A DNA stretch of 64,000 bases. It comes from Macrostomum lignano. Taxonomy: Eukaryota. The stretch spans positions 124,001 to 188,000 of the forward strand of contig NIVC01001253.1 in NCBI GenBank assembly GCA_002269645.1, read 5' to 3'. Shown here piece by piece: positions 909 through 62,640 of this stretch (positions are counted from its first letter, which is position 1; each line of letters begins with the position of its first letter). The position numbers were made by a program, and so were the translations under genes. A model generated the notes under the pieces. It worked only from the letters and a program-made list of their open reading frames with translations. It did no database searches and was not told the DNA's origin.

Positions 909-1914
909 GGCAAAGACCAATTTTCGTCTTGTTCCGTGAAATGTCCAATGCAGCCAAGCCGCTCAATTTTCAATTAAATCACCGCAACTTTAAAGAAAAT
1001 GACGTGGTTAGCCACAGAAACTCAGAAAGCAAAGTGGCAACCATTCTCATAACCAGCATTCAGTTTTAATGCAGATCAAACATTGTGGGAAAAAATCTAC
1101 TCGCATAAGCTGGGGGACACAGTTCTGGGTTCTTAGTTCCCCAGCTTTGCTTTGCAGAGTGAAAGCAAAGAGAGAAAGAGACGACTGGCAAGATCGTGAC
1201 TTTTGATCGATTAGAAGAAGATTCCATTTTCAATAGAGGGTTTATAAAAAAACTAAAGAATTGTAAGGATTAAAGCATATTGAACATTAACTATAAGCGG
1301 CTTTTAAAGAGGCCCCCCATACGCCACGTTCGCTTCTAATAAACGAATTACTTTGTTTAAACCGGGCTTCCGTCACGTTCCCACTCCCAGTCAATTGTTG
1401 TTGCAGCTGATGCGTTGGGGCTTGGGGGTGGCTGGGGATCTGGGAGCGTTCTGATCCCCCTTGGCAGTCGCTTATTTGCCTTGGTCTGTCTTGACAAACC
1501 GAGGGGAAACCAAGATTTGACGCTTCCTATAGCATTAGTGGAACCTACCCAACCTACGCATTTAGTGAATTATATCAGACGAGAGACATCAGAATTGCAT
1601 TGGTGAGGGGGGTGGATTTGCAGTTTTCGAATATAGCTATTTTTTCAAAAGAGAACGTGACTGAAGTTCGAGTTTTTTTCGCTAGGAAGCGTGGCGTTGG
1701 TTATCGGAGATTGAATATTTGACTTGCAAACACATGCTAGGAAATCTTAATGGTGCTATTAAATAGCGGCGATTTTAACTTTCAATTCCTCTTAACTATA
1801 TAGTTACTATAAATTTGTTGTAGAGAGAATACAAACTCTGGGAGACACCCAGACCGGTTAAATAGAGTGAACTATTCTGGGAGCGGTAAATGGAGGCGGA
1901 AATGTTTGAGAGAG

Positions 1915-2420
1915 GAGCGGAAATTAGGGGGCGAGAAAGTGGGGGCGGAAACGGATGAGAGTGGAGAGGAAAATGGGGGCGGAAACGGATGAGAGTGGAG
2001 AGGAAAATGGGGGCGGAAACGGATGAGAGTGGAGCGGAAAATGGGGGCGGAAACGGATGAGAGTAGAAAGGAAAATGGGGGCGGAAATGGATGAGAGTAG
2101 AGGGGAAAATGGGGGCGGAAACGGATGAGAGTGGAGAGGAAAATGGGGGCGGAAATGGATGAGAGTAGAGAGGAAAATGAGGGCGGAAACGGATGAGAGT
2201 GGAGCGGAAAATGAGGGCGGAAACGGATGAGAGTGGAGCGGAAAATGAGGGCGGAAACGGATGAGAGTGGAGAGGAAAATGGGGGCGGAAACGGATGAGA
2301 GTAGAGAGGAAATTGGGGCGGAAACAAATGAGAGTAGAGAGGAAATTGGGGCGGAAACAAATGAGAGTAGAGAGGAAATTGGAGCGGAAACAAATGAGAG
2401 GGAGTAGAAAGCAGGGGTGA
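1915..2420. repeat. 33/34-bp purine-rich minisatellite (GAGGAAAATGGGGGCGGAAACGGATGAGAGTGGA) in protocadherin intron
   Basis: GGAAACGGAT recurs at 1981 and 2015; lies 3' of the predicted splice donor at 2560. Confidence 0.9.
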
Positions 2421-2560
2421 ATTTGTTACAGCGGAAACTAGAAGAAAATTCTTAAAAAGTGCAAGCGCGGATTTAAGGGCGGAAAAAATTGAAGCAAGCA
2501 CGAGGACGAATATCAAATTGGAAAGCAGCAGAAATACTCGACTGTCAACCATCGACTTAC

Positions 2561-5252
2561 CCGACGCTCTCAGACTCGAACCCGCGACCGTCCCCGCAGC
2601 GGCCATGCCGGCTCGCCGCCTGAGCAGGCAGACGGCAAATACGAGCACCACAATGAGCACCCCAGTGGCGATCATCAGGCCGACAATAGCAGTCAAGCTG
2701 GTGGCCTCCGAGTCCAAGTCCGGGTGGCCGCCGCGGCCGCCTTTGGCTCCATTGACGCCGCTTCTGCGACCGCCGCGGCCGCCGCTTGCAGTTCGGCCGC
2801 CGCCGCCGCCTCCTCCGCCTCTGCTGCCTCCTCGGCTGATTCCAACATCTGGCGGCCCGTCCGACACCGACACCAGCAGCACCCGCATGGAGCTCCGAGG
2901 CGGGCTGCCGGCATCGCTGGCTGTCACTTTCAAAGCCAGGCTGCTCTGCCGGCACTCCAGCGACCTGACGAGCAGCAGGTGGCCCTGGCGGGGGTCCAGG
3001 CCGAAGCCCGCCTGCCAGCCGTCCTGGGTCATGTTGTAGCTCACGCTGCCGTTCTCCGCCTCGTCCGGGTCGGTGGCGCTCAGCGTTGCCACGACGGTGT
3101 TGGCAGCCTCGCGGCAGGAGACATTGATGCGGTTGTTGACGCCGCTGGGGAAAGCGAAGCTCGGCGAATTGTCGTTGACGTCGAGCAGGCGGACCTGCAG
3201 CAGCTCCCAGCGCGACTGGCGCCGCGGCCGGCCGTAGTCGTGCGCGGTGACGTTGATCTCGAGCACGGGAGTGAGTTCCCGATCCAGCCGGCTGGTCCGG
3301 GTGAACACGCCGCCGTCTGGCCGGATTTCGAAGTGCAGGCTGGGCGGCAGGATGGCGTAGCCGACTCGACCGTTGTCGCCAATGTCGGCATCGGTGGCTG
3401 TCAGCCGGCCGACGAAGGTGCCAGCCGGTGAGTTCTCCGTCACGCTTAGGTCATGCCGGCCGGTCCACTCCGGCCAGTGGTCGTTGGTGTCTCGGATGAC
3501 GAGTTCCACGCTGGCGTTGGCCCAGTGGGCGCCGTCGGTGACTCGCACCTGGAACCGGTAGCGGTCTTTGCTCTCGCGGTCGAACCGCTGCCGGGACCGG
3601 ATGAGCCCGCTGGACTCGTCAATGCTGACCAGCCGGTCGCCCTCGGGGTCCAGCGAGTATTTCAGCTGGCCAGCCTCGTCGGGGTCGCGAGCGGTTACGC
3701 GGCCGATGTGACTGCCGGGCTCCTGCTCCTCCTCAAGCTCCATGCCGTAGGCCGGCTGCTCAAACACTGGCGGGCTGTCGTTCTCGTCCAGCAGCGTCAC
3801 CCGCAGCTGCTGGCTGGCGGTGCGCGAGGGCCGGCCAGCGTCCGAACAGATCACCGTGTCCGTCACTTGTCGGTCCCGCTCTCTGTCCAGCTCCGACTTG
3901 GTAACCAGCCGGTAGACAGAGAGGCTGTCCTGGCTCTGCTCCAGGTTCAAGGCCAGCTGGGAGGCCTGGGCCAGGCGGCAGGTGACGCGGCTGTTCTCGC
4001 CAGAGTCCCGGTCGGTGGCCATCACATAGCCGACCAGCTCACCGGCGCGACGATTCTCCGAGACGGTCAGCGGCGGGTTTCTCGACGAGGAGACGCCGCC
4101 AGCAGCCGAGGCGATGCCGTTCGCCCGGATGCTGGGAGTTTCGTCATTCTCATCCAGCAGTCGGACGGTGACCAGAGCCTCGGCCTGCTTGGCCGGGAAG
4201 CCCTGGTCTCGAGCAATGACAGGCAGGCGGAAGACGCGTTGCCGCTCAAAGTCCAGGCGGGCAGCTCGGCCGACTCTCAGCTGGCCAGTCACGGCATCCA
4301 GATCGAAGCTCTGCAATGCGAGGCTGTCCGTCTGGGCCTCGTTGAAGCGGTAGACGATGCGCCCGTTTTGACCCGCGTCGGCATCCTTGGCGTGCAGCTG
4401 GGTGACTAAGTAGCCAGCCGGGGCGGCCTCAGAGATGTTGAACTCCAGCTCAGAGCTGGTCCACTCCGGTTGGTTATCGTTCTCGTCTCGAACGGTGACA
4501 GTGAAGGTCAGGGTGCCGGTCTTAGGCGGTTCGCCAGCGTCCGTTGCGACCAGGACGAGTCGGTAGGCGGCGCGAGTCTCCCGATCGAGCGGCCTCCGCA
4601 GAAGCAGACTGACCCGCACCGGCTCAGCGACGTCCTTAGCCGTTAGCCGACGCGGTTCAACGTCGAACACGCTGACAGCGTCGTCGTCAGAGGCGGCATC
4701 GGCTGGCAAGGCGAGGCGAAACTTCCGCAGGCCAAACCTTGGCGAGTCGCGGTCCAGCACAAGGAACGGCAGGCTGACGCTGGTCCGGTTGACCTCAGCC
4801 AACTCGCTGACTTCCACCTGACGATTGACCACGCGAAACTCCGGCTGGTGATTGTTCTGCGCCTGCAGCTCCAGGCGGAGGGTGAGCAGCTGGGCCGGGC
4901 GGCCGCGCCACTGAGCGTGCACCATGACTGACAGCTCGCACTGTGACTCGCACGGCCGTCCGATGGCCCGAGCGATGATGTCGCGGTCAATCTGGCGTCG
5001 AGTTTTCACCACCCCGGAGCTCGAATCCAGGCTGAGCAGTTGCCCGTCTGTCTGTTCGTTGAGCATGAAAAATCGCTCGATGTCGCCTGGTTGAGCTTTC
5101 AGTCGGTTGGCCAAATTGACCACCTGGGTGCCGGGCGGGGAGCCTTCAGGTAGAGTCACCGTCACGTCTGGAGATGGCGCTGAGGCGCTGAGCATCAGAG
5201 GCAGCAGCAGTAGCAGCATCAGACTCGACAGGTGCGATATTCTGGCGACCAT
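2561..5252 (-). CDS. Protocadherin (delta-1-like architecture): signal peptide, 7 cadherin repeats, Gly-rich linker, TM; first coding exon, later exons not located
   Basis: Hydrophobic signal peptide MVARISHLSSLMLLLLLPLML. Repeated Ca-binding motifs (LDRE/LDFE, AxDxG, DENDNQP, DENDETP, DENDSPP, DTNDHWP, DVNDNSP). TM LTAIVGLMIATGVLIVVLVFAVCLL followed by RRR. Minus-strand donor G|GTAAGT at 2561/2560 and acceptor CTACAG| just upstream of the ATG (exon starts 5261). Confidence 0.93.
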
Positions 5253-6324
5253 CTTGTCACACTGTAGACAGAGAGAAAGATGAGGAAAGCTGAGCTGTTG
5301 TGGTGTCTTAAATAAGGCGATGCGTGGCGCCTCTCTCTCCCCTCCTGCAGTATTTTATTCTGCCTGTCAGTCACTTGGCAGCTGGCACGCAGCTCTGCAT
5401 TACCCAGCTCACTAACTTTCTCAAGCTGCCAATCTAATCCTGAGCAGCGTCTCACATTTTGATTTCCAATTTCTCTCAGCGATCTGAGCTAAGCAGGAAA
5501 AAACCTTGTCCATCTCACAGAGTATAGGAATAGAAAATTTTCATCAGAGAAATTGTTGCGGTAAGGAGTCTGTAATATCGGAGCTCCAGCTTCAACTGAC
5601 AGCCAATATTTCCTAACTGACTGACTTTATCGCGTCAAAGTTTTTTTCTATTTATTGATTTTCATATCGTAGCTACTAATACAGTAAAGACTTGCATGTA
5701 ATCTGACTTTATGCCTCATCATTATATAACATCGTCATCTAGCTGTGGGAATTTCTCCAATTACGTTATGGCCGATTCATTCGGGGCAGTATGTGTGCTC
5801 ACAAGCTGTATCCATTCCCCGTAACCACCCCGTTGATTACGCAAGCGATATGCAGCTATAGTAGGAGAAAAAACCTGCATGAGGTTTCCTTGAGACGCAA
5901 GAAAAAAATCTGAAGAAGACGACCCAGGCCTTAAGCTGTAGGGTCAGCCGCCCAGCTCGTGTCTGTCTTCTTAGCGATTTTGAAAACTGACCCACGCCAG
6001 GCTCCCGAGGGCCTGTGATGAATAATTAACGGATGAAGCTTCTGACGCCGAGCTTCACTCAGTTTGATTGCTGCTCAGCGAATCCGCGAGGGAGAGAGAG
6101 AGAGAGAGTTCAATCTGTTAGCTGGTTTTCGGTTGTGTGTCTCCAGCCCGACACTCCTTTGGGAAATTTTGTCTTTTTATTTACTTATATATAAACCGTC
6201 TTAATATTATAGTGGAGATTTTGTATTGATACGAGTATGATAATATGCTGCTGGTGGGGTTCAAAACTGTATGACCATGTTGAACAAAGACTGCTTGTTC
6301 TAACTGATTTCCAACCTGTTTGAA

Positions 6325-29625: not shown

Positions 29626-29798
29626 CAGCAGCCAAGAATCACAGGTATGATTCACCAGCTTTACACCCATCTAACTCCATCGCCTCCCTACTCTATACTC
29701 TCCCTACTCTCCCTACTCCCTACTCCGCCTCATTATTCTCCTTCCTCTATTCCTATTCCTACTCTTTCCCCTCACAGCTAACTGTCAACAGTCACACA

Positions 29799-32700
29799 AT
29801 GGGCCAAAACCTCAGCTTCGGCTCTTTTGTCCAAACCCATCGAGCTGTCACCAGCGGCAACATCACAGCAGTGAAAGCTCAATTGTGGCTTCGCCTAGTA
29901 CAAACATGGAAGACCGACTTTTGCATTGAAAACACTGGACTAGCTGCAGAGCATGGTCAGTTGGGAGTCATCAAGCTTCTCCTACCAAATATCGCTGACG
30001 AGACAAAACGAGATGATTGCTGCATCAAAGCTGCAGAATCTGCTGCAAGAAATGGTTACTCTGAGATCGTAAGTTTTCTCGTTCCGAAAGTTGCAGACCA
30101 AACAAAAAGAGATGATTGCTGCATCAAAGCTGCAGAATGTGCTGCAAGAAATGGTCACTTTAAAATCGTAAACTTACTTTTTTCGACAGTGGTTGACCAA
30201 ACAAAAATAGATGATTGGTGCATCGACGCTGCTATATATGCTTCAAGAAATAATGAGTGGGAAGTCGTCAAGTTTCTCGTGCACAGAATTGCGGTTGAAA
30301 TATCTCTTCCGATAAATGGTGAGTTACAAGTCATCAAGATTCTGGTGGCGACAGTCCCTGACCAAACAAAAATAGATGATTGGTGCATCGACGCTGCTAT
30401 AAATGCTGCAAGGTATAATCAGTGGGAAGACGTAAAGTTTCTCGTGCCGAAAGTCGCTGACCAAACAAAAAGAGTTGATTGCTGCATCGATGCTGCAGAA
30501 TCTGCTGCAAGGATTGGGCACCTAGAAATCGTCAAGTTTCTTGTCGAGACAGTCGATGACCAAATTAAAAAAGATGATTTATGCATCCAAGCTGCCCAAT
30601 CTGCTGCAATCTATGGTCAATGGGAAGTCGTCAAGTTTCTTCTCCAGACAGTCGATGACCAAACTAAAAAAGATGATTCCTGCATCCAAGCTGCCCCATC
30701 TGCTGCTAGAAATGGTCAATGGGAAGTCGTCAAGTTTCTTGTCCAGACAGTCGCTAACCAAACTAAAAAAGATGATTTATGCATCCAAGCTGCCCAATCT
30801 GCTGCAATCTATGGTCAATGGGAAGTCGTCAAGTTTCTTCTCCAGACAGTCGATGACCAAACTAAAAAAGATGATTCTTGCATCCAAGCTGCCCCATCTG
30901 CTGCTAGAAATGGTCAATGGGAAGTCGTCAAGTTTCTTGTCCAGACAGTCGCTGACCAAACTAAAAAAGATGATTTATGCATCCGAGCTGCCGATTCTGC
31001 TGCAAGATTTGGTCGCCTAGAGGTCGTTAAAGTTTCTTGTCCAGAAAGTTGCTGACCAAATTAAAAAAGATGATTCTTGCCTCAAAGCTGCCAAATCTGC
31101 TGCAAGAAATGGTCACCTAGAAGTCGTCAAGTTTCTTGTCGAGACAGTCGATGACCAAACTAAAACGGATGATTTCTGCATCCAAGCTGCCCAATCTGCT
31201 GCAATCTATGGTCAATGGGAAGTCGTCAAGTTTCTTCTCCAGACAGTCGATGACCAAACAAAAATAGATGATTGGTGCATCGACGCTGCTATATATGCTG
31301 CAAGGTATAATCAGTGGGAAGACGTAAAGTTTCTCGTGCCGAAAGTCGCTGACCAAACAAAAAGAGTTGATTGCTGCATCGATGCTGCAGAATCTGCTGC
31401 AAGGATTGGGCACCTAGAAATCGTCAAGTTTCTTGTCGAGACAGTCGATGACCAAATTAAAAAAGATGATTTATGCATCCAAGCTGCCCAATTTGCTGCA
31501 ATCTATGGTCAATGGGAAGTCGTCAAGTTTCTTCTCCAGACAGTCGATGACCAAACTAAAAAAGATGATTCTTGCATCCAAGCTGCCCAATCTGCTGCAA
31601 GAAGTGGTCACCTAAAAGTCGTCAAGTTTCTTGTCCAGGCAGTCGATGACCAAACTAAAAAAGATGATTCCTGCATCCAAGCTGCCGATTCCGCTGCAAT
31701 GGGGGGTCACCTAGAAGTCGTCAAGATCCTTGTCCAGACAGTTGCTGATCGAACTAAAAAAGATGATTCCTGCATCCGAGCTGCCCATTCTGCTGCAATC
31801 TTTGGTCAATGGGAAGTCGTCAAGTTTCTTGTCCAGACAGTCGCTGACCAAACTAAAAAAGATGATTCTTGCATCCAAGCTGCCCCATCTGCTGCTAGAA
31901 ATGGTCAATGGGAAGTCGTCAAGTTTCTTGTCCAGACAGTCGCTAACCAAACTAAAAAAGATGATTTATGCATCCAAGCTGCCCCATCTGCTGCTAGAAA
32001 TGGTCAATGGGAAGTCGTCAAGTTTCTTGTCCAGACAGTCGCTAACCAAACTAAAAAAGATGATTTATGCATCCGAGCTGCCGATTCTGCTGCAAGATTT
32101 GGTCGCCTAGAGGTCGTCAAGTTTCTTGTCCAGACAGTCGCTAACCAAACTAAAAAAGATGATTTATGCATCCGAGCTGCCCATTCTGCTGCAATCTTTG
32201 GTCAATGGGAAGTCGTCAAGTTTCTTCTCCAGACAGTCGATGACCAAACAAAAATAGATGATTGTTGCATCGACGCTGCTATATATGCTGCAAGGTATAA
32301 TCAGTGGGAAGACGTAAAGTTTCTCGTGCCGAAAGTCGCTGACCAAACAAAAAGAGTTGATTGCTGCATCGATGCTGCAGAATCTGCTGCAAGGATTGGA
32401 CACCTAGAAATCGTCAAGTTTCTTGTCGAGACAGTCGATGACCAAATTAAAAAAGATGATTTATGCATCCAAGCTGCCCAATTTGCTGCAATCTATGGTC
32501 AATGGGAAGTCGTCAAGTTTCTTCTCCAGACAGTCGATGACCAAACAAAAATAGATGATTGTTGCATCGACGCTGCTATATATGCTGCAAGGTATAATCA
32601 GTGGGAAGACGTAAAGTTTCTCGTGCCGAAAGTTGCTGACCAAACTAAAAAAGATGATTCTTGCATCCAAGCTGCCCAATCTGCTGCAATCTATGGTCAA

Positions 32701-34115
32701 TGGGAAGTCGTCAAGTTTCTTGTCCAGACAGTCGCTGACCAAACTAAAACGGATGATTTCTGCATCCAAGCTGCCCAATCTGCTGCAATAAAAGGTCACC
32801 TAGAAGTCGTCAAGTTTCTTGTCCAGGCAGTCGATGACCAAACTAAAAAAGATGATTCCTGCATCCAAGCTGCCGATTCCGCTGCAATGGGGGGTCACCT
32901 AGAAGTCGTCAAGATCCTTGTCCAGACAGTTGCTGATCGAACTAAAAAAGATGATTCCTGCATCCGAGCTGCCCATTCTGCTGCAATCTTTGGTCAATGG
33001 GAAGTCGTCAAGTTTCTTGTCCAGACAGTCGCTGACCAAACTAAAAAAGATGATTCTTGCATCCAAGCTGCCCCATCTGCTGCTAGAAATGGTCAATGGG
33101 AAGTCGTCAAGTTTCTTGTCCAGACAGTCGCTAACCAAACTAAAAAAGATGATTTATGCATCCGAGCTGCCGATTCTGCTGCAAGATTTGGTCGCCTAGA
33201 GGTCGTCAAGTTTCTTGTCCAGAAAGTTGCTGACCAAACTAAAAAAGATGATTCTTGCATCCAAGCTGCCCAATCTGCTGCAAGAAGTGGTCACCTAGAA
33301 GTCGTCAAGTTTCTGCAGACAGTCGCTGATCCAACTAAAAAAGATGATTTATGCCTCAAAGCTGCCAAATCTGCTGCAAGAAGTGGTCACCTAGAAGTCG
33401 TCAAGTTTCTTCTAGAGACAATTGCTGAGAAAACTAAAAAAGATTATTTATGCATCCAAGCTGCCGAATCTGCTGCTAAAAATGGTCAATTAGAAGTCGT
33501 CAAATTTCTTATCGCGTGCCTCTCGAGTCCATATCAGAGAGCGAATCTCCGTTTCCGATGCGTAGTCGCGGCTTGCTCCTATCTTCAGGAAAACTTCGTT
33601 GTCTTCCTCGGCCTCGAGCCCGACTGGTTCTTCAAATCCAGCTCCATCCTCAGCTTCACTGCAGCAATGGCCATCGAAGGCAGGAACTCTGTTCTCACCG
33701 ACACCCTCTCTCGAATGCAGCCAGCTCACATCACACAGCTTCTCCGTCTCTCCATCTCTCAAAGACACGTCGCTCTTACTGTCACACTGATCAATAAAAA
33801 GCGAGTCAGCACACAGTATGTCGATCTGCCAGACAGCACTGGAGCCACTGCTCTCATGCTGGCAGCTGATGCAGGTCATCACGAGCTCATTGAGAAACTC
33901 ATCGATCTCGGTGCGTCAGTGCGTGCTGAAGACAGTCAGGGTCGGACTGCTCTGTCACGAGCGTGCGAAGCCGGTCACGCGCGAGCAGCCAAGTCTCTGA
34001 TGGATAGAGGAGCGGATGAGAGTCATCGAGACGGTCGGGGTCAGACGTGTGCGCAGGTGGCACAGCGATTTGAGCAGCGGCAGGTGCTGCGGCTTCTAGA
34101 TCCCACCGGTGCAGG
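29799..34115 (+). pseudogene. ANK-cGLR copy 1, coding exon 1: MGQNLS start, ~37 ankyrin-like 33-aa repeats, then canonical ankyrins; one +1 frameshift at ~31028-31031
   Basis: Acceptor CTCACAG| at 29777, ATG at 29799. The 99-bp units encode AAxxGxxEVVKFLxQTVxDQTKKDDxCIxAAxS. C-terminal canonical ANKs (DSTGATALMLAA, DSQGRTALSRAC). GAG GTC GTT AAA G has one extra base versus GAG GTC GTC AAG in sister units; the frame after it is open to the phase-2 donor GG|GTGAG at 34115/34116. May be functional if the indel is an assembly error. Confidence 0.8.
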
Positions 34116-34780
34116 GTGAGTTTTTTAGTGCGGCTAACGAAGGGGCCTGAGAGCAATCTGGAGCTGGCTAAGAAGTTCGATAAAGTGGACTGCAGGGGTT
34201 CTCATTAGAATTATAGAGCTTCTAACCGGAGTGCACGCGGGAGGGGAGATAAAACAGAAGGGGGGGTAGGAAAATGGGACTTAAGTAGCCACCAAAGACA
34301 AAAACAACAGGGTCGATCGCGACTCGAGTCTGTGCAGCCAATCACGCGTGAGACGGGTGTAACACCAACACAAACAGAAATGAAATTAGAAATCAAGCCT
34401 CAGCCAACCAGGCCCTAAAAGGCTGGGCTGTGGTGCCCCCACTCTGGCCGGCGAAGAGTGAAAATAAAGGGATGACAACCGCCAGTGCAATGAATCAGGG
34501 CTGGCTTAGGCGCGGCGCATTCACCACACAACTGGCAATGCATTTCTACTTTTCTCATTGAGTATATTGCGAAATTCAGTGTGCAGTGTGTCAAATTTAT
34601 TTGCTCCTCGAACTCAATTACTTGGCTCAGTTTCTCTCCCGTGAAAAGCCTGTATGGCTCTCATTCCCGCATTGCAGAAGCCCAGAGGCCCGGCAGGCAG
34701 CCGCTAACCGTTTGGATTCGGGCCTCCATCGGTGAGTCTGGCCGGTTCCGCTTTCACTGCCGCATTGCGCCTTCCAGCTC

Positions 34781-35676: not shown

Positions 35677-36113
35677 CTCTCCTGCTTGTTCTGTCCATCC
35701 AACTCTGAGCAATTCACCCACACGCATCTCGGATCATTCCAGGCTCTCAGACGACTCCCAGCAAGACAGGCGCCTGAGCGAGGAGCTGCATCGACTGCTC
35801 AGCGAGGCGGGATTCACCGAGCAGAGAGCAAAGTGTCAGCAAAGACTGGCTGACTGGCTGGAAGGAGCCGCTCGAGTCCTCACACAGGATGACAGGCGGA
35901 TGACGGGCAGCTACGCAGAGGGCTGGGCCAACAGTCTGGTGCAAGTGAACGGCAGGACAGCTGCAGACTCGGATATTGACTGGACTGTGCTGGTTGCTGG
36001 GCAAAAGTTTCATCTGGAAGGTGGCTGCAAACAAAATAGTAGCCAGGACTTTTGCAGATACGACACTTGTCTGAAGATCAAGGAGGGCCACGCACAGGTG
36101 TCAGTGGGAGCTG
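35677..36113 (+). CDS. ANK-cGLR copy 1, exon 2: nucleotidyltransferase core (cGAS/Mab-21 family N-lobe)
   Basis: GSYAEG at 35906 and DSDID (DxD 35972-35980). Phase-2 acceptor at 35677 or 35743 (ambiguous); phase-1 donor G|GTGAG at 36113/36114. Confidence 0.85.
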
Positions 36114-36475: not shown

Positions 36476-38250
36476 GCAGCCAACCTGCAGTGACAGCCAC
36501 GACGTGCGGTGTGCGGCCTGCACAGGACACGTGCCATGCGATCCGGTGCTGCAGCAGTTTTTGTAAGGATAGAATTGCAAAACTGCTTGGAGAAAGTCCT
36601 AATAATGTTCACCTCGTTCGGGCGACCAGACCGAGCTCGACCAACGAGCTCAGAGTGAGCTTCAGCTTCCAAGAGAAACGGATCATGAGACGGCTGAGCA
36701 CAGTCCAGGGCCAGCTGTTCACACTCATCAAGTTCATCTTCAAGACACACTTGCCGCTCACTCTGGACACGCCTGGACTCAAGACATACCATGCAAAGAC
36801 TCTGCTATTCACAATGCTGGAGAAGCATGGCACAGATCCTGAAACTGAGGCTTGGAAGCCCCACAATCTGATCGCTCTGCTCAAGGAGTCTCTCGACATG
36901 ATGCTGAGCTTCATCGACTCGAGCAGCTCGCCCGACGAGTGCATGCCGCACTTCTTCATGCCCGACGCTCCGCTCTACTTCAAGAACGCTGGAATCGGCG
37001 GCGACTTCGACAACACGAAGGCGAGGGTTCGAGACCGACTTTGCGAGTTGAGAAGCGACATCAGCGGAGTGGTGGAGCAGCTGATGAGACTCGTGAGACC
37101 TCTGCAGTCAGAGAAGTTCTACTTTCACCCGTTTACTCTGCTTCCTCTGACAGCGCCGCCTGCTGTCACAGAGATCTCGGAAGGAATTTATTCAAAGTTC
37201 GCACACGTGTACAGTGTGGTGCACCAGTGTGTGAGCGAGCTGCAGTCGGAATCGAGCGACAGAGACACCCTGATGAGGCACCTCAGTCTTCTGCATGAGC
37301 TTAAGTGGTGCAAGTGCGCCGCCCTGTGCATGACCGCCATGGCGCATTTGAAGTTCGGAGAATCTGAGGAGGCTGAGAGACTCGCGATGGAGCTGCAGAG
37401 ACATCAGGTTGAGTCAGGGTTGAGGCCACAGGATATTCGAGACGAGAGTAGCATGTACGGGATCAAGATAAAACTGTCAGCAGACTCAGACTGGGCGTGG
37501 AGGTTCTGCCTCCCCTGCGACTCTCCGCCTCGCTTCCCATTCCTTCCCGAGTTCACGCAGACTCTGTTTACAGCCAGACTTTCGCAGCCTCTCTCCTCCC
37601 ATCTGTACGTGAACTTCCGCTGCCTGAGCTGGAGTCTCCAAGCTGAGCTGCTCCGCAATCGCGCACCTGCAATCGCATTCGATCATTGGATTGAACAGCT
37701 GCTTGGAGACCCGGAGTTGGAAGAGCTGCAGAGATATCGGCGCTTGGAGGAGCTGCGGAGATACCCGCTCTTGCAGGTGCGGAGATACCCGGACTTGAAG
37801 GTGCTGCATGGAGACCCGGACTTGGAGGAGCTGCTCACTCTGGCTCACTACAGTGACTGCCGCGAGCACGTGGAGCTCAGCCTGCAGCAGATGGAGACGA
37901 TCGAGGAAGAGAGACGCGTCGCCATGGAGACGCAGGACGAGGAGAAGATCGGCTGGGTCAGACAGAAGCGGTGGCGAGTTTCGAACCGGAGCGGCAGCGA
38001 CAGCGGCGCTCACCGCAGCAGGGAAGATGAGGAGCGGAGGCTGTGGACGTGGGCGAGGCTGGGGCGAGACGGGGCCGACTTGGGTCGCCTTGTTGCCATG
38101 GAAACTGCAGCGGAGCAGAGAGACAGCTGGACTCACGCCAAGCTCAGTCGAATGAGACTGATGAGGTTCGACAGACTTGATGCAGCAGCCGGAGTCCTCA
38201 AAGTCGAGTCACAACGTCGAGGCCGGAAAAGGAAGGCTGAGTCAGACTGA
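36476..38250 (+). CDS. ANK-cGLR copy 1, exon 3: Mab-21 domain plus helical C-terminal extension
   Basis: Phase-1 acceptor TCTGCAG| at 36475. Third Asp in QDTCHAI (36526-36528). Mab-21 hallmarks RVSFSFQEK, LKTYHAKTLLF, W...L..LL...L, CMPHFFMP. Stop at 38250. Confidence 0.88.
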
Positions 38251-38387: not shown

Positions 38388-38517
38388 GAGGCTGTGGACG
38401 AGGACGAAGCTGCGGCGAGACGGGGCCGACTTGGGGCGCCTGGTTGCCATGGAAACTGCAGCGGAGCAGAGAGACAGCTGGACTCACGCCAAGCTCAGTC
38501 GGATGAGACTGCAGTGA
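38388..38517 (+). pseudogene. Tandem duplicate of the terminal ~40 codons of cGLR exon 3
   Basis: RLWTRTKLRRDGADLGRLVAMETAAEQRDSWTHAKLSRMRLQ* repeats 38035-38160 and matches the copy 2 ending. Confidence 0.85.
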
Positions 38518-46425: not shown

Positions 46426-48581
46426 ATGGGCCAATACCTCAGCTCCCATCAAGCTGTTACCACCGGCAACATCACCGCACTCAGAGCTCATCTGCTGCTT
46501 CGACCACGACAAACAGCCAAGACCCGCTTCTGCACAAAAAATGTTCAACTGGCTGCACGGTATGGTCACCTAGAAGTCGTGACATTTCTACTTCAGAGAA
46601 TTGCTGACCAGACAATAAAAGATGATTTCTGCATCCAAGCTGCACAATCTGCTGCAATTGAAGGTCAACTAGAAGTCGTCAAGTTTCTTGTCTAGACAGT
46701 CGCTGACCAAACAAAAAAAGATCGCTGCTGCATCCAAGCTGCAAAATCTGCTGCAATAAATAAGCAATGGAAAGTCGTCAAGTTTCTTGTCCAGACAGTC
46801 GCTGACCAAACTAAAAAAGATGATTTCTGCATCCAAGCTGCCACATATGCTGCAATCTTTGGTCACCTAGAAGTCGTCAAGTTTCTTGTCCAGACAGTCG
46901 CTGACCAAACTAAAAAAGATGATTTCTGCATCCAAGCTGCCGAATCTGCTGCAATCTTTGGTCATTGGGAAGTCGTCAAGTTTCTTGTCCAGACAGTCGC
47001 TGACCAAACAAAAAAAGATCGCTGCTGCATCCAAGCTGCAAAATCTGCTGCAATAAATAAGCAATGGAAAGTCGTCAAGTTTCTTGTTCAGACAGTCGCT
47101 GACCAAACTAAAAAAGATGATTTCTGCATCAAAGCTGCCGAATCTGCTGCAAGAAATGGTCACCTAGAAGTCCTCAAGTTTCTTGTCCAGACAGTCGCTG
47201 ACCAAACTAAAAAAGATGATTTCTGCATCAAAGCTGCCGAATCTGCTGCAAGAAATGGTCACCTAGAAGTCCTCAAGTTTCTTGTCCAAACAGTCGCTGA
47301 TCAAACAAAAAAAGATGATTTCTGCATCCAAGCTGCCACATCTGCTGCAATCTTTGGTCAATGGGAAGTCGTCAAGTTTCTTATCCAGACAGTCGCTGAC
47401 CAAACTAAAAAAGATGATTTATGCATCAAAGCTGCCGAATCTGCTGCAAGAAATGGTCACCTAGAAGTCGTCAAGTTTCTTGTCCAGACAGTCGCTGACC
47501 AAACAAAAAAAGATGATTTCTGCATCCAAGCTGCCGAATCTGCTGCAAGAAATGGTCACCTAGAAGTCGTCAAGTTTCTTGTCCAGACAGTCGCTGACCA
47601 AACAAAAAAAGATGATTTCTGCATCCAAGCTGCCACATCTGCTGCAATCTTTGGTCACCTAGAAGTCGTCAAGTTTCTTGTCCAGACAGTCCCTGACCAA
47701 ACTAAAAAACATGATTTATGCATCCAAGCTGCCGAATCTGCTGCAAGAAAAAGTCACCTAGAAGTCGTCAAGTTTCTTGTCCAGACAGTTGCTGACCAAA
47801 CTAAAAAACATGATTTATGCATCCAAGCTGCCGAATCTGCTGCAAGAAAAAGTCACCTAGAAGTCGTCAAGTTTCTTGTCCAGACAGTCGCTGACCAAAC
47901 TAAAAAAGATGATTTATGCATCAAAGCTGCCGAATCTGCTGCAATGAAGGGTCAATTGGAAGTCGTCAAGTTCCTCATCTCGTGCTTCTCGAGTTCGGAT
48001 CAGAGAGCGTATTTCTGTTTCCAATGCGCAGTCAAGGCTTGCTCTCGTCTTCACGAAGATGTCGTTTCCTTCCTCGGCCTCGAGCCCGACTGGCTCTTCC
48101 AATCCAGCGCCATCCTCAGCTTCACTGCAGCAATGGCCATCGAAGGCAGGAACTCTGTTCTCACCGACACCCTCTCTCGAATGCAGCCAGCTCACATCAC
48201 ACAGCTGCTCCGTCTCTCCATCTCTCAAAGACACGTTGCTCTTGCTGTCACACTGATCAATGATGAGCGAGTCAGCACAGGGCATGTCGATCTGCCAGAC
48301 AGCACTGGAGCCACTGCTCTCATGCTGGCAGCTGATGCAGGTTATCACGAGCTCATTGAGAAACTCATCGATCTCGGTGCGTCAGTGCGTGCTGAAGACA
48401 GTCAGGGTCGGACCGCTCTGTCACGAGCGTGCGAAGCCGGTCACGCGCGAGCAGCCAAGGCTCTGCTGGACAGAGGAGCGGATGCGAGTCATCGAGACGG
48501 TCGGGGTCAGACGTGTGAGCAGGTGGCACAGCGATTTGAGCAGCGGCAGGTGCTGCGGCTGCTGGATCCCACCGGAGCGGG
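46426..48581 (+). pseudogene. ANK-cGLR copy 2, coding exon 1: MGQYLS start, 15 ankyrin-like 33-aa repeats, canonical ankyrins; in-frame TAG at codon 90
   Basis: Acceptor TTCCACAG| at 46397, ATG at 46426. GTC TAG at 46690-46695 where sister units have GTC CAG. Otherwise one open frame (47944 is in frame) to the phase-2 donor GG|GTGAG at 48581/48582. Confidence 0.82.
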
Positions 48582-49599
48582 GTGAGTTCGTAGTGCGGTT
48601 TAGTTTTCTTATAACTGTCGCGTTTATGGAAGAATCCCAGCGAAATTCACCTCTAACTCGGGCTCCAATGTGGACCCTAATGCTGCGGTCACCCTAATCT
48701 ACTCGCAAACGACGCTGAGTCAGCTGGGACCAAACTCCCCGAGTAATTCCCGAATGTCTGACAAGCGTATCACTTGTAGCAGTTAAGGTGAGATGCGCGT
48801 ACGACGCTTCAAATCCCATGAAGAGTTTAAAAGCGGGGATTAGTCACTCGAAAACTCCCAATTCCAGACTACAAGCCTGGGAACGGATTTCTGTGATCAC
48901 TTACTGATTCGGGCTCCTCTTCTTTGTCGGGCGGGTCCGTAGAGCTCGTCTCCTCTGTTCGGTCTTCCTCCTGAGTAGTCTTCTTGAATTCTAGAATCGG
49001 TCGAATATGAGAGCTTAATATGTTAGTCCGTCGACGTCAATATATTCCTCTGGTGCAGAAAGCAATATATTCCTTGAGTGCAGAGATGCGCCCTAATAAC
49101 AAAGTCAACTCTATAACAATAACGAGGTCCACCAGAAAAGGCGTCTTCTAAAATAACGGAATCGGAGTCGTGTGCTCCTATCGGTTACTCTAGGGTACCA
49201 AAATCAATTGATCGATAATCGACTAAGAGTGTCGGAATCGGTTCGCAGATCCTATCCAATCCTTTAGGAATAGGGAGGCCTCAAATTCAATAGATCAGTA
49301 GAATTCGACTGATCAGTAACGGCCGGCAATGACACAGCTCTCAATAATCAATTAAATCAATTAACAGACTCAAATAACAAAGACTCTAACAAATGCTTAC
49401 CAATTAGTGTTTGTGTCTCTCAGAGATATTAGCCTTGCTTGGTAGCTCTGGCTAAGCGTTAGATCTCCTAAGGCTGCTCCGAGTCTGAGGTTTCAGCTCG
49501 GATTTTTCGCTTGTGTTTAAGTAATTGTTTTATTCCTCGCCTCATTGGCAGAATTCTTGAACTGCAGGTATCGTATTGTCAAATATTTTGCTGAATAAT

Positions 49600-52500
49600 T
49601 GTAGCTTGTAATGTACGTTCACTCTCAGTATGTACATTGTTGACTCGCATAAAAAAGCCATCACTGCCCCAAGGGGTCTTTGTTGATTTTTCTACACTGC
49701 CAAATACCGCGTGTTACAAGTGGTAGCAGAGCTCAGAATGGCAGAGGGCAGCCACCGCGCAATTCCGAGAACTTTTAGCTCTGGCAACTTTAGTGAGTGG
49801 CTGCAGTGGTTTGAGCTGTGTGCGACAGCCAACAACTGGACAAACGAGAAACACTTGCATCTGCCAACGTTTCTTGATGTCGAGGCTCTGGTGGTCTTCA
49901 TTGAGCTCGGCGACAAGGACAAGAGCGACTACAGTCAGGTGACCAAAGCATTAACAGAGGCCTTCCACCCAGACAGCCAGCACTTCTCAGCACTGGAGGC
50001 ATTCGAGAGCCGGAAGCTGCTGCCTGGTGAACCTCCTCGGCTGTTCCTCTACCACCTGAAGCAGCTGCTCAAGGACGCTGGCATCTGCAACAAGGATGCC
50101 ACGGACACCATGCTGACCCATCACTTCATCCGCGGACTGCCGGCGGATGTCAGCAGGCAGATCAGAGCCGATGCGACAGTCAAGACGGCGAGTGACGCTC
50201 TTGCGCGCGCACAACTGCTGCTGGAGCTGCCTTCTGCCACCACGGATGGAAGCCGGCAGCCTCTCGCGGCGGCAGCCGGAACTGCTTGCGGCAGCGCCGA
50301 AACGGCAGATCTAAGGGCTGCGGTCAGCTCGCTGCAGTCGACGGTCCAAGATCTCTGGCGGCGAAGCTGGGCTCAGAGGCTTCAGAATCCTGCGCGGTTT
50401 GCAGTGCGAGGAGACGGTGCGAGGTGACCTGCTGGAACTGCAACCGCCGCGGCCACATCGCCAGGAACTGCAAGCAGCCGTCGGGAAACGACACAGGCCG
50501 GGGCGGAGCCCCCTAAGACAACATTTGTCTGGACTTCAGCGACCGCGCAGAGGCACCACCAAGGAGCTCGTGCGCGATGGATGGCGTGAGCCACCTCGAC
50601 GCTGACAGCCAGCTGGAGGACCTCGAAGAGAAGCTGGTGCCGGATTTCAGCACGGAAGAGGTCGACCTGCCCGTCGTAAAGGACCCAGACATCCGAGCCC
50701 TGGTGCACGAGTTCAGCGAAATCTTCTCAAGGCGGCCGGGACTGACAGATTGCCACGAGCACAGCATCCCCCTGATCGACGATGTCCTGGTGCGGATCCC
50801 TACAAGGAAGCTGCTGGTGCACTGGGAGCCCGAGGTGAACAAGCTGATCCAGGAGCTGCTCGACAATGACTTCATCGATGAGTCGGACAGTCCGTACGTG
50901 GCGCCCCCGGTGTATGTGCGGAAGACGAACGGAGACCTGCGGCTGACGATCGACTACCGCGAGCTGAACAAGAAGACGGTGCGGTCGGCGCAGGGCATCC
51001 CGCAGATGGACTCTTCGTCAAGGACAAGCTGGCTGGCAACGAGATCTTTTCGGTGATCGACCTGAACGGCGGCTACTTTCAAATCCCGATCAAGCCAGAA
51101 GACAGGCAGAAGACGGCCTTCAGCGCTGGGCCCGGCATGCCGCTGTAACAGTTCAAGAGGATGCCACAGGGCGTCTGCGGCGGCCCAAGCTCGTTCACCA
51201 TCCTGATGAACCGCGTGTTCAAAGGCGCCGAACAAACATTCACCTACATGGATGACACGCTGTGCTTCTCCAAGTCGAAGGCCGAGCATCTCCAGCACAT
51301 GCGAGAAGTGTTTGAGAAGATCAGAGGCGCCGGGCTCACAGTCAGGGGCAGCAAGTGCCAGCTGGGCCTGTCGGAGGTCACGTTCCTCGGCACCGTGTTC
51401 TCGGCCAAGGGTGCCACGGTGAGTCCTGAGAAGGTGCGTGCCATTTAGGAGTGGCCGGAGCCGCAGTCCCCAACACAGGTGCGGCAGTTCCTGGGCCTCT
51501 GCAACCAGTACAGGAAGTACGTGCCAAGCTTCTCCGACATCGCCGGGCCGCTGCACAGACTGACCAGCAAGACGGAGAAGTTCGAGTGTACCGGCGAGTG
51601 CAGCACGGCATTTTGACGGCTCAAAGAGGCCCTGCAGCAGCCGCCGATCATCGGCCACTTGGATTTCTCCAAGGAGTTCCAGCTCTACACGGACGCCAGC
51701 AACACCGGAGTCGGGATCGTGCTCAAGCAAGGTGACCAGGTGATCGAGTACTGCAGCAGAGAAGGGCTACTCCGCTGATCCGAAGCTCAAGCTTGTCATC
51801 GATGCACTGGAGAACGACAGCACGACCCCGCCAAGATGATCCGACAGCAAACTGTGACACCTCAGCCGCATCTGGCGGAAGTTGCGGATTCAAGACGGCC
51901 TTCTCTGTCGCGCCTTCAACGACGCGTGATTCAGGTGCCCGTGATTCCGGAGTCGCTGCGGCGCCAGTTCCTCACTGACTTTTACGAGGGCATCGGCGGC
52001 CACTTTGGACCGGAGAAAATGGACCACACGCTGAAGCAGACCGTGTACTGGCCTGGGCTGCAGAGCGACGCGGTGAGTTTCTGCCAGGAGTGCCAGACCT
52101 GCCAGCTGAAAAAGGCGCAGCTCCGGCCCGCAGCGCCACTCGGTGAGATGCCGATCGGCAAGCCCTGGTAGGCGGTGGAGATCGATGTGCTGAAGGTGCC
52201 GACATCCGAGCGAGGCAACAGCTACCTGCTGGTGATGCACGACCAGTTCTCCAAGTTCCTGACCGCCGTGCCGATGCCAGATCAGACCGCCAAGACCATC
52301 GCGGACGCTGCAGTGAAAGTCTTCTCCCTGCTCGGAGTCTCGTCCGTCCTCCACTCGGACCAGGGCGCGAACTTCGGGAGCGAGCTGTTCCAGGAGACGC
52401 TGCGAGCACTGGGCATCAAGAAGACGCGCACCACGCCGTACCATCCGCAGGGAAATGGACTGGTGGAGCGCGGCAACAAGTCGCTGCTGCAGCTGCTGCG

Positions 52501-52787
52501 GCTGTTCACCGAGACCGAGTCCAGCTGGGAGGAGCAGCTGCCGCTGGTGGTCCTGTCCTATAACTCCAGGGTCCACAGCTCAACCAAGGTGGCGCCGCTG
52601 ATGGTGATGACCGGCCGCGACCCGCAGCTCCCGCCGCATTTCAGAGCAGCGAGCGGCACTTCGATATCGGCACCTACTCGGCACAGCTGGAGCGTCGGCT
52701 GGCCCGAATCCGCGAGTTCGTCGAGGAGAACCTGGTAGCCGCCGGGCAGCAGCAGAAGGCGGCTCACGACAAGAAAGCGACGCAGCC
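49600..52787 (+). mobile_element. Decayed Ty3/Gypsy LTR retrotransposon in copy 2 intron (left boundary uncertain)
   Basis: LTR-like end ..GTGTTACA at 49718, 2-nt spacer, PBS TGGTAGCAGAG (49721-49731, complementary to the initiator tRNA-Met 3' end). gag from ATG 49738 with a CX2CX4HX4C knuckle (50430-50471). RT (LRLTIDYRELN, YMDD at 51245-51256), RNase H start (FQLYTDAS), integrase HHCC and D,D(35)E (EIDVL, HSDQG, NGLVER) in RT-RH-IN order. Several stops and frameshifts; no 3' LTR seen. Confidence 0.92.
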
Positions 52788-53220
52788 GCAGCCAACCAGG
52801 CGCAAAATGCTGGGCTGGGGTGCCCCGCACTCTGGTCCGGCGAAGAGCGAAAATAAAGGGATGACAACAGCCAGTGCAATTAAGCAGGGCTGGATTAGGC
52901 GCGGCGCATTCACCACACAACTGCCAATGCATTTCTGCTTTTCTCATTGAGTAAATTGAGAAATTCGGCTTGAAACTCTATGAAGTCATCATGCAGTTTC
53001 ACAATTATTTGTAATTCAAACAATTAATTACTTTGCTCAATTTCCCTTCTGTTAAAGCCGGATCTCTTGCCTGCATTGCAGAAGCCCAGAGGCCCTGCAA
53101 GCAGCCGCTCACCGCTTCGATTCGGGCCTCCATCGGTGAGTCTGGCCGGTTCGGCTTTCACTGCCGCATTGCGCCTTCCAACAGGCAGACAGCTTGGAGC
53201 AGAAATTGCAGCACTCTCAG

Positions 53221-53675
53221 CTCTCCTGCTTGTTCTGTCTATCAAAATCAGAAAATCAGCACACGCATCTTGGATCATTCCAGGCTCTCAGACGACTCCC
53301 ACCAAGATGCCGTGCTCTCACGACTCCCACGCTCTTCGCGCCTGAGCGAGGAGCTGCATCGACTGCTCAGCGATGCGGGATTCACCGAGCAGAGAGCAAA
53401 GTGTCAGCAAAGACTGGCTGACTGGCTGGAAGGAGTCGCTCGAATCCTCACACAGGATGACAGGCAGATGACGGGCAGCTACGCAGAGGGCTGGGCAAAC
53501 AGTCTGGTGCAAGTGAACGGCAGGACAGCTGCAGACTCGGACATTGATTGGACTGTGCTGGTTGCTGGGCAAGAGTTCCATCTGGAAGGTGGCTGCGGAG
53601 GAAGCTACGGTTCCTGCAATAAAGCCGCTCGGCTGCAGGTCAAGGAGGGCCACGCACAAGTGCCAGTGGGAGCAG
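53221..53675 (+). CDS. ANK-cGLR copy 2, exon 2: nucleotidyltransferase core
   Basis: GSYAEG at 53474 and DSDID (DxD 53540-53548). Phase-2 acceptors possible at 53185, 53221 or 53284; phase-1 donor at 53675/53676. Confidence 0.85.
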
Positions 53676-54129
53676 GTGAGTGAGGCTGGGTTCATCATCA
53701 AAGTTCCCAGATCTTCCTGCAACTTAAAGCCAAATGCAAAATTTTCAAGAATTCAAGTAGCCGTGTTTGAAATTTACAAGGCATTCAGAGCTGCCTCATA
53801 CCCTGTAAAGTGTGAAAAAATGAGCCGAAACCAACCTTGACTGCCTGATTGGTGCCTTGCTGCGGGGCACTGAGTCCTGATGATGCTTGAGCTGAAAACT
53901 GAGAAAGCCTGTCCTGTCCAGTCGCTATGCGATCAAATAAAGAGTTATAAAAATTAAAACCTTTCAAATTAGTATTTGAAAAACTAAAAAAGCAGTTTCA
54001 AAAAAACCCATCTTGTTTTAACCTGCGTATCGATCTAATAAACGCCAAGAGGCTTCGTCAACTCTCAGTTGTATCTCTCTGCCTTAGTCTACACCCTCCC
54101 CAAAAAGTGACTCTCAATGCGCTCTGCAG

Positions 54130-55730
54130 GAAGCCAACCTGCAGTGACAGCCACGGCCTGCGGCGTGCGGCCTGCACAGGACACCTGCCATGCGATCGAC
54201 TGCTGCAGCAGTTTCTGTAAGGACAGAATAAAAGAACTGCTTGGATACAGTGTTCCTGTTCACCTCGTTCGGGCGACCAGACCGAATGAGACCAACGAGC
54301 TCAGAGTGAGCTTTAGCTTCCAAGAGAAACACACCATGAGACGGCTGAGCAAAGTCCAGGGCCAGCTGTTCACACTCATCAAGTTCATCTTCAAGAGACA
54401 CTTGCCGCTCACTCTGGACACGCCTGGACTCAAGACCTACCATGCAAAGACTCTGCTATTCTTCATGCTGGAGAAGCATGGCACAGATCCTGAAACTGAG
54501 GCTTGGCAGCCCCACAATCTGATCGCTCTGCTCAAGGAGTCTCTCGACATGATGCTGAGCTTCATCGACTCAAGAAGCAGCTCGCCCGATGAGTGCATGC
54601 CGCACTTCTTCATGCCCGACGCTCCGCTCTACTTCAAGAACGCTGGAATCGGCGGCGACTTCGACAACACGAAGGCGAGGGTTCGAGACCGACTTTGTGA
54701 GTTGAGAAGCGACATCGGCGGAGTGGTCGAGCAGCTGAGGAGACTCGTGAGACCTCTGCAGTCAGAGAAGTTCTACCTTCACCCGTTCACTCTGCTGCCT
54801 CTGACAGCGCCGCCTGCTGTCACAAAGATCAGAAAAGGAAGTTATGTCAGTGAGATTTACGCAGATGTTTACAGTGTAGTGCACCAGTGTGTGAGCGAGC
54901 TGCAGTCGGAATCGAGCGACAGAGACACCCTGATGAGGCAGCTCAGTGTCCTGCATGAGCTGCAGTGGTGCAAGTGCGCCGCTCTGTGCATGACCGCCAT
55001 GGCGCATTTGAAGTTCGGAGAATCTGAGGAGGCTGAGAGACTCGCGATGGAGCTGCAGAGACATCAGGTTGAGTCAGGGTTGAAGCCACAGGATATTCGA
55101 GAAGAAGAGTTTGATGATGTATACGTTATGTACCCGATAAAACTGCCAGAAGACGCAGACTGGGCGTGCAGGTTCTGCCTTTCCTGCGACTCTCCGCCTC
55201 GCTTCCCATTCGTTCCCGAGTTCATGCAGACTCTGTTCACAGCCAGACTGTCGCAGCCTCTCTCCTCCCACCTGTACGTGAACTTCCGCTGCCTGAGCTG
55301 GAGTCTCCAAGCTGAGCTGCTCCGCAATCGCGCACCTGCAATCGCATTCGATCATTGGATTAAACAGCTGCTTGGAGACCCGGACTTGGAGGAGCTGCTC
55401 ACTCTGGCTCACTACAGCGACTGCCGCGAGCACGTGGAGCTCAGCCTGCAGCAGATGGAGATGATCGAGACAGAGAGACGCGTCGCCATGGAGACGCAGG
55501 ACGAGGAGAAGATCGGCTGGGTCAGGCAGAAGCGGTGGCGAGTTTCGAACCGCAGCGGCAGCGACAGCGGCGCTCACCGCAGCAGGGAAGATGAGGAGCG
55601 GAGGCTGTGGGCGAGGGCGAGGCTGCGGCGAGACGGGGCCGACTTGAGGCGCCTGGTCGCCATGGAAACTGCAGCGGAGCAGAGAGACAGCTGGACTCAC
55701 GCCAAGCTCAGTCGGATGAGACTGCAGTGA
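54130..55730 (+). CDS. ANK-cGLR copy 2, exon 3: Mab-21 domain plus helical C-terminal extension
   Basis: Phase-1 acceptor at 54129; third Asp in QDTCHAI (54180-54182); RVSFSFQEK, LKTYHAKTLLF, CMPHFFMP; stop at 55730. Confidence 0.88.
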
Positions 55731-61926: not shown

Positions 61927-62640
61927 CTGTGGGCGAGGGCGAGGCTGCGGCGAGACGGGGCCGACTTGGGTCGCCTGGTTGCCATGGAAACTGCAGCGGA
62001 GCAGAGAGACGGCTGGGCTCACGCCAAGCGCAGTCGGATGAGACTGCAGTGACCTGAGGACTTCGTTGCTCAGATTTACAAGTTTCGCTGGACTAGACTT
62101 CCAGACATGAAAACTGTGTGCTTTACCGTTGGGTTTTCTTGTTTTTTCTAGTACGAGCTACATGCTCTTGGAATATTTTCCGTAGATTTTCCCTTGTTGC
62201 TGACTCATTTCCCCTTTTTGCTCTTTTTGGGTAGTGTGCACATCGGGACCCATCGAATGGGAGCAGCCCTCTTGCTATGAACTGCAGTTTCGCACATTTG
62301 CGCTGCAATTCAATTCACACTGCATGCTGAATTGCTTTTTCCATTCAAACTGCGTGTCTGCTTTGATGCGGGTTTTTTTCTGCGATTTTGTTCTGCGGAC
62401 TTCAATACCCAATTGCCTGTTTGAGAAATCTGTTTGAGAAAGTTTACGGGCACATATTTCTGACAATATTTTAGATGTACTTTTACGGCTTAAAGCATTG
62501 AGTGTACATGCTCCTGGATTATTTAGACACCTGGTCTCAGAATAAGCTCAATCAGCATGCAAATAAATATCATCATGTACTTTCATTGCGTATTAATGTA
62601 CTCTGCAGTGACTGACAGCCTGACAACTCCCTCATGAACA
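61927..62640 (+). pseudogene. Orphan 3' end of a cGLR gene (last ~40 codons plus trailer)
   Basis: LWARARLRRDGADLGRLVAMETAAEQRDGWAHAKRSRMRLQ* (stop 62052), followed by a trailer similar to 38520-39450 and 55730-56450. Confidence 0.85.

Follow-up and report, generated by a model that had tools for sequence, protein, structure and literature searches.

Introduction

In animals, cGAS-like receptors (cGLRs) have radiated to more than 200 genes in some bivalves; 87% of cGLRs lack additional domains, and ankyrin (ANK) or death domains occur in 3 of 42 coral cGLRs (Li et al., main text of bioRxiv 10.1101/2023.02.22.529553). According to the same text, in which the name Macrostomum does not occur, most Platyhelminthes, Mab21 apart, are without cGLRs, and in the accessible text of PMC13563047 cGAS and STING were not found in Schmidtea. 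In fungi, the NLRs with ANK, TPR or WD repeats combine repeat-number polymorphism with concerted evolution, and about five positions per ANK repeat, located on the binding face, are reported to be under selection (Dyrka et al. 2014, accessible text of PMC4986451). Here we analyse a 64,000-nucleotide stretch of the genome of the flatworm Macrostomum lignano (the window; assembly GCA_002269645.1, contig NIVC01001253.1, positions 124,001 to 188,000 of the forward strand), which contains an array of 99-bp coding repeats at the beginning of a gene whose later exons encode a predicted cGLR domain.

Our preferred reading, to which we give a probability of roughly 0.6, is that the array is the fast-diversifying N-terminal ligand sensor of an ankyrin-cGLR intracellular immune receptor, which would make a nucleotide messenger on binding a foreign protein. 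As with the ankyrin-fused animal cGLRs of Stylophora pistillata, the family has the common active-site motif, an NTase (nucleotidyltransferase) domain with a helix bundle, ankyrin fusion and a large radiation; in M. lignano, by contrast, fusion is the rule and the arrays are long, internally repeated, shuffled and positively selected. Ankyrin-cGLR fusions, big cGLR radiations and shuffled, selected fungal ANK arrays are already known, and what appears to be new is their combination as a large flatworm repertoire.

Results

The array consists of 35 units with a predicted variable face

Tandem Repeats Finder (TRF) detects a 99-bp period at 30003-30251 (2.5 copies) and at 30328-33510 (32.2 copies, score 3740), and the starts of 35 units fall between 30012 and 33442. 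Unit statistics were computed on 31 regular units, leaving out units 3, 10 and 33, of irregular length, and the terminal unit 35. The array had been noticed in a prediction made from the letters alone (the original prediction), as a repeat with an invariant scaffold and a few hypervariable residues. TRF and the unit alignment bear out this pattern: all nine variable alleles quoted are present, each one to five times, the conserved cysteine is invariant over the 31 regular units, and a motif search of the array found no GxTPLH. The degree of uniformity had been overstated. Units described as near-identical in DNA share on average 81.9% of their nucleotides (range 66-100%) and 70% of their amino acids, and the 'few' variable residues are in fact 13 of 33 positions with entropy above 1 bit, headed by 7, 12, 1 and 4 in what we take to be the ankyrin consensus numbering (G13); positions 1, 4, 23 and 31 are variable outside the segment singled out before, and 9 of the 33 are invariant. 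There are 22 distinct nine-residue variable types. The order of units, which the original prediction proposed to set ligand specificity, is the product of several block duplications, units 4-6 recurring at 13-15 and 23-25, and units 16-19 at 28-31.

A seven-unit structure model (pLDDT confidence 95.7, above 94 in four of five models) predicts a two-helix solenoid without strands, in which each unit contributes a helix of 17-18 residues, from position 28 to 12, and one of 10 residues, from 15 to 24. The 33-residue helix-turn-helix period and a Pfam Ank match agree with canonical ankyrins, but GxTPLH and the beta-hairpin are missing, the long helix standing there in the model. The nearest folds are ankyrins, DARPins and FEM1 (TM score up to 0.69) and giant-virus ankyrins (up to 0.75), and the unit is predicted to be a hairpin-less ankyrin. 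The giant-virus repeats (Mimiviridae and kin) are the closest predicted folds (TM 0.71-0.75; Atlas 0.96-0.97), but identity is low, 23-38% in the best matches, and no cGLR fusion was seen with them; the likeness is that of a common repeat type and not evidence of gene transfer.

Across the family, variability along the long helix has a period of 97 degrees and points 170 degrees away from the hydrophobic moment (permutation p = 0.002). Variable positions 4, 7, 8, 11 and 12 are predicted to form one exposed helical stripe. The earlier proposal that the variable positions line one face stands for the family, as a prediction, on the side opposite the hydrophobic face; it does not reach significance in this array alone, where the same test gives p = 0.11.

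These features bear on the suggestion that the array is a code of the TAL effector type, one unit reading one DNA or RNA base in a sequence-specific cGLR. TAL effectors and TALE-like repeats are likewise tandem units of 33-34 residues and two helices with variable residues (accessible text of PMC11417379); the array is long, its 33-residue units come as discrete recurring alleles, and known relatives of the partner domain sense nucleic acid. The array differs in its charge, being slightly acidic (-0.7 per unit, isoelectric point (pI) 5.3; the six variable positions tested below contribute +0.5 per unit) with no basic surface, which argues against TAL-like sequence-specific DNA binding. In TAL effectors variation is confined to a two-residue, small-alphabet code. 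Here many positions vary and the alphabet is open, with 64 pairs at positions 11-12 and 44 at positions 7-8 among 320 distinct units, and two other arrays (L034 and L040) contain homopolymer-like runs of one unit. The fold neighbours are also others, no TALE, PPR or PUF being among the matches listed. We regard a unit-by-unit code as very improbable; the array looks like a protein-binding surface, by analogy with the ANK arrays of fungal NLRs.

Moderate support for diversifying selection at the stripe

Over the whole array, non-synonymous and synonymous differences per site (pN and pS) are 0.169 and 0.248 (pN/pS 0.68). Six test positions (11, 12, 7, 4, 8 and 14) were chosen from 26 other arrays. 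At these positions pN in this array is 0.425, versus a pS of 0.251 overall and 0.258 in the same codons, and pN elsewhere is 0.127; 19 of the 26 arrays pass the reciprocal test. A fixed-site codon model gives omega (dN/dS) 1.68 at the six positions versus 0.44 (p = 0.029), values of 1.27-3.89 in seven other arrays, one of them not significant, and 2.34 (n = 158) and 1.39 (n = 146) in the two halves of a split of the family. Stripe dN/dS is 1.4-2.3, versus 0.4-0.7 elsewhere. A version in which the six sites were left out of tree building (omega 2.2, p = 0.0008) was discarded, because neutral simulations bearing gene conversion inflate it (mean 1.25-1.41). These data, as well as the repeat-number data below, are copies within one assembly and not a population sample. 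They support, at moderate strength, diversifying selection at the stripe positions. The original prediction would have been undermined by scattered or buried variable sites or by dN/dS at or below 1; omega is above 1 and the sites fall on one predicted face.

The array is probably spliced to a predicted cGLR domain

The array exon is followed by three further exons (Table 1). The four have GT-AG ends, join in frame and lead to one terminal stop; without one extra base in unit 10, the predicted product has ~2,170 amino acids. The ATG at 29799 opens with MGQNLS, which is N-myristoylation-like; an MG start is found in 9 of 38 paralogues. A stand-alone ankyrin gene ending at 34119 was considered and rejected, because its apparent TGA stop at 34117 lies within the splice donor GG|GTGAGT, which 35 of the 38 copies fetched retain.

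Table 1. Features of the array-cGLR gene and its tandem paralogue (positions in the window).
Feature	Position	Strand	Basis or remark
Large coding exon: N-cap, variable array, conserved ankyrin module	29778..34115	+	ATG 29799; phase-2 GT donor; acceptor 29776-29777 from sequence only
Array of 35 ankyrin-like units of 33 amino acids, predicted to be hairpin-less	30012..33510	+	TRF, unit alignment, structure model
Frameshift in unit 10 caused by a single additional base	31028..31029	+	Run X3 contig; X1, X2 and X4 in-frame form only
Helical linker and 2-3 canonical ankyrin repeats (GATALM, GRTALS, GQTCAQ)	33511..34115	+	DNA identity about 90-92%, 40 best copies
Linker exon of 54 nt, phase 2-2	34678..34731	+	Joints 34105>34677 and 34730>35742
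Exon with NTase N-terminal half, MTGS..EG and DSDID	35743..36113	+	Sequence, RNA-like joints
Last exon: third Asp (QDTCHAI), RxSFS, KxYHxKT, Mab-21_C helical bundle, further C-terminal domain	36476..38250	+	
Tandem paralogue, same exon plan, array about 14 units, TAG at 46693	46426..55730	+	Exons 53082-53135, about 53284-53675, 54130-55730

In RNA-like contigs from four studies, depth is in the hundreds over exons and 0-3 in the intron at 34184-34525. Joints lead from the ankyrin exon to 34677 (runs X1, X15 and X17) and to 35742/35744 (X1 and X15), the full list being 34105>34677, 34108>35744 and 34730>35742; no run is recorded as RNA, and the RNA label of runs X1, X15, X17 and X20 is itself a guess, backed only by the exon-intron contrast and the joints. 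Splicing is observed for the family, and we infer it for this copy. The original prediction was right about the array but missed the rest of the gene, both the spliced cGLR domain, the chief indication of function, and the frameshift at about 31028.

The cGLR motif h[QT]GS X8-20 [DE]h[DE]h is present at the locus as MTGS, 20 residues and DIDW. The third acidic residue, sought as h[DE]h after X50-90, is an aspartate 61 residues past the second one, on a predicted strand, in 35 of 40 homologues; the spacing fits, and the flanks, Q and T, are atypical. Among 40 aligned homologues (of 50 matches) 35 have an intact catalytic triad, and the active site ranks with the least variable regions of the protein. 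Pfam Mab-21_C scores above its cut-off in the last exon. The Pfam Mab-21 NTase model, PF03281, gives no match to these genes, which are therefore easily overlooked. The best PDB sequence match of the relative P0052 is a cGLR1 structure (8gjy), though a weak one (E = 0.011). An AlphaFold2 model (pLDDT 84, pTM 0.86) of the paralogue P0001, which is 87% identical to the last exon of the locus, matches human and mouse cGAS with E of about 3e-6 and TM by target of 0.50-0.57 over 360-400 columns, and the Atlas neighbours of the domain are mollusc and cnidarian Mab-21/cGLR clusters (0.94-0.95). By the three criteria set out in section 5 of the preprint (among them the motif and predicted structural homology to cGAS/CD-NTase; bioRxiv 10.1101/2023.02.22.529553), the domain qualifies as a cGLR, with atypical flanks of the third aspartate and a fold that is predicted.

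Four variable loops (residues 261-280, 321-340, 521-540 and 621-640 of P0001) interrupt the otherwise conserved enzyme and C-terminal domain, and may be a second diversifying surface.

If the cGLR domain itself sensed nucleic acid, as cGAS does, the array would serve to target, tether or multimerise the enzyme, for example on a capsid or a host scaffold, and its variation would track pathogen antagonists. The core is mildly basic (pI 8.3), and the preprint, in its main text, ties higher pI to nucleic-acid sensing (bioRxiv 10.1101/2023.02.22.529553); the annotation of some relatives shows no ankyrins (P0052) or very few units. The net charge of the core, however, is only +3, and the enzyme is near-uniform among paralogues while the arrays have little in common (of the 193 six-residue unit types distinguished in 437 units, 138 occur in one array only), which fits specificity residing in the array. 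We consider nucleic-acid sensing by the enzyme rather unlikely.

A dispersed family with shuffled arrays

A homologue search returned 50 matches, all of them hypothetical or automatic M. lignano entries; 48 list ankyrin families and 49 show GS..[ED]G. Word-limited searches gave no named match outside M. lignano, only an unnamed metagenome protein (P0056). The whole assembly contains 85 occurrences of a 20-mer from the conserved ankyrin module, 105 of the NTase active-site pattern and 0 of controls; the latter count used a degenerate pattern, a first, allele-specific one having given 3. Eighty module sites lie on contigs with a complete NTase listing, and an NTase motif within 12 kb is found downstream on the same strand for 60 of them, upstream for 4 and on the opposite strand for 0. 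The family is dispersed over at least 55 contigs. Since a Mab21L-like gene is present three times in the assembly (C401, C402 and C835) and three subgenomes have been reported for this species (accessible text of PMC10733133), the 105 copies may be inflated up to threefold by polyploidy, and the haploid count is perhaps nearer 35.

Comparison with the best 38 other copies, of 155 candidates, revealed arrays of 0 to 46 detected units. Two copies, L063 and L064, have an identical 3' block and 27 versus 46 units. Another, L031 (G000:C143:311600-321590), is a chimera: its 5' flank and first units are those of the array gene of the window, its 3' end is identical (100%) to that of the tandem paralogue and its middle array is its own. 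A four-gamete test for distance-dependent recombination within units was flat (18% versus 17%) and uninformative.

Recognition of self and non-self between worms, in the germ line or at mating, would use the same mechanics with conspecific ligands, as fungal HET-E/D do. Allorecognition genes are among the fungal arrays of the same evolutionary type, array length differs here between copies with identical 3' ends, and no second copy of the present array above 91% was found among 39 of 124 candidates scored. Against this, neither a signal peptide nor a membrane segment is apparent, the cGLR output speaks for danger signalling inside the cell, and dispersal over so many contigs is unlike a tightly linked recognition locus. 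Such a role appears improbable.

Several further observations concern the family and the window. Three relatives (P0035, P0036 and P0003) show the architectures ANK-cGLR-ANK-caspase, with a degenerate catalytic motif (DCDMN) and with the third aspartate replaced in P0036, and ANK-cGLR-kinase. They may be annotation fusions; by analogy with NOD domains, they suggest a cGLR domain that can serve as a switch for exchangeable outputs. M. lignano has a second cGLR radiation at greater distance (P0049, P0063-P0088), which includes many members with canonical ankyrin repeats, and the total cGLR count therefore exceeds the subfamily studied here. The first post-array intron of the tandem paralogue holds a broken Ty3/gypsy-like retroelement (49687-52738), with gag-like and reverse transcriptase-like parts recognised by eye and an integrase by Pfam rve. 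Duplicated pieces of the 3' tail of the last cGLR exon lie at 38389-38511 and 61927-62046, and a protocadherin-like gene with seven cadherin domains at 1872-5354 on the minus strand.

Discussion

The arrays of the family combine repeat-number variation with moderately supported positive selection on one predicted face, and the analogy with fungal NLRs drawn in the original prediction holds on both counts. The systems differ in architecture, as the array is N-terminal here, the output is a nucleotidyltransferase and Pfam scans of the large exons and of P0052 found no NACHT or NB-ARC; the unit also lacks the beta-hairpin, which bears some of the selected sites in fungi. The high-conservation criterion for fungal NLR repeats is 85% by T-REKS, beside the pairwise amino acid identity of 70% here, and the two metrics differ.

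In the receptor that we propose, the array would bind, probably multivalently, a protein of a pathogen or a host protein that has been modified; binding would cluster or de-repress the enzyme via the conserved ankyrin module, and the cGAS-like domain would then make a nucleotide second messenger. New specificities would arise from point selection at positions 4, 7, 8, 11 and 12 together with unit shuffling by unequal crossing-over.

A number of results weigh against this reading. The reciprocal pN/pS test fails in 7 of the 26 arrays, the codon model applied to the long-helix (helix-A) block alone gives omega 1.83 with p = 0.067, and array L042 gives p = 0.32. In neutral simulations with heavy gene conversion the likelihood test yields up to 9% false positives, and L031, in the training set, has units in common with the array analysed. 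The conserved ankyrin module shows only weak constraint (pN/pS 0.52). The third aspartate lacks hydrophobic flanks, and an intron-blind search of the assembly without a positive control gave no match to the STING families PF15009 and PF23417. The letters at the first RNA-like joints are those of paralogues rather than of this exact copy. Both copies in the window are broken in the assembly, by the frameshift and, in the neighbour, by the TAG at 46693, and an automatic test for an intact exon rejected 12 of the 38 copies fetched. The ligand, the enzyme activity and the immune role are inferred.

The two broken copies would also be expected under relaxed birth-and-death. On that view the arrays are coding minisatellites that drift in a polyploid genome rich in repeats, the present copy is a pseudogene and the stripe is no more than unconstrained surface. 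The window contains many minisatellites, scaffold omega is 0.9-1.4 in some arrays, and the array-wide pN/pS given above points the same way. The frameshifted form, however, occurs in one contig of run X3, possibly the source of the assembly, and the in-frame form over 31028 was found in the other three of four runs (X1, X2 and X4), possibly derived from unit 32; the junction of units 10 and 11 shows no differences in the RNA-like run X1. Read contigs show presence and never absence, and we read the frameshift as a broken allele of a live gene that is in frame in other samples. The exon is open from the methionine to the donor in 26 of 38 fetched copies. Omega exceeds 1 at sites chosen in other arrays, and the value of 1.68 was attained by 1 of 30, 0 of 59 and 1 of 53 neutral simulations. 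Drift of this kind is, in our judgement, an unlikely explanation, and we retain the receptor as the preferred one.

A more ambitious proposal, which we put forward tentatively, is that Macrostomum possesses an NLR/VLR-like repertoire built on a cGAS scaffold, that is, dozens of cGLRs whose trigger is set by recombining hairpin-less ankyrin units, which would sense proteins rather than nucleic acid and signal via a receptor that is not STING, in a phylum reported to have lost most of its cGLRs. Such a repertoire would be a natural, reprogrammable converter of binding into a second messenger. The family is undescribed in the literature covered on cGLR/Mab21 with ankyrin, on cGAS-STING in Macrostomum and flatworms and on their immunity; subscription journals and tables S1, S2 and S5 of the preprint, a possible place of listing, lay outside that scope.

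The family qualifies the view of cGLR loss in flatworms. What activates the cGLRs that are indifferent to DNA and RNA, and what role fused repeats play, is an open question in the field, and a laboratory flatworm in which a near-constant enzyme is attached to dozens of different arrays is well suited to testing it. If the array does set the trigger, NLR-style repeat diversification would be tied to second-messenger immunity.

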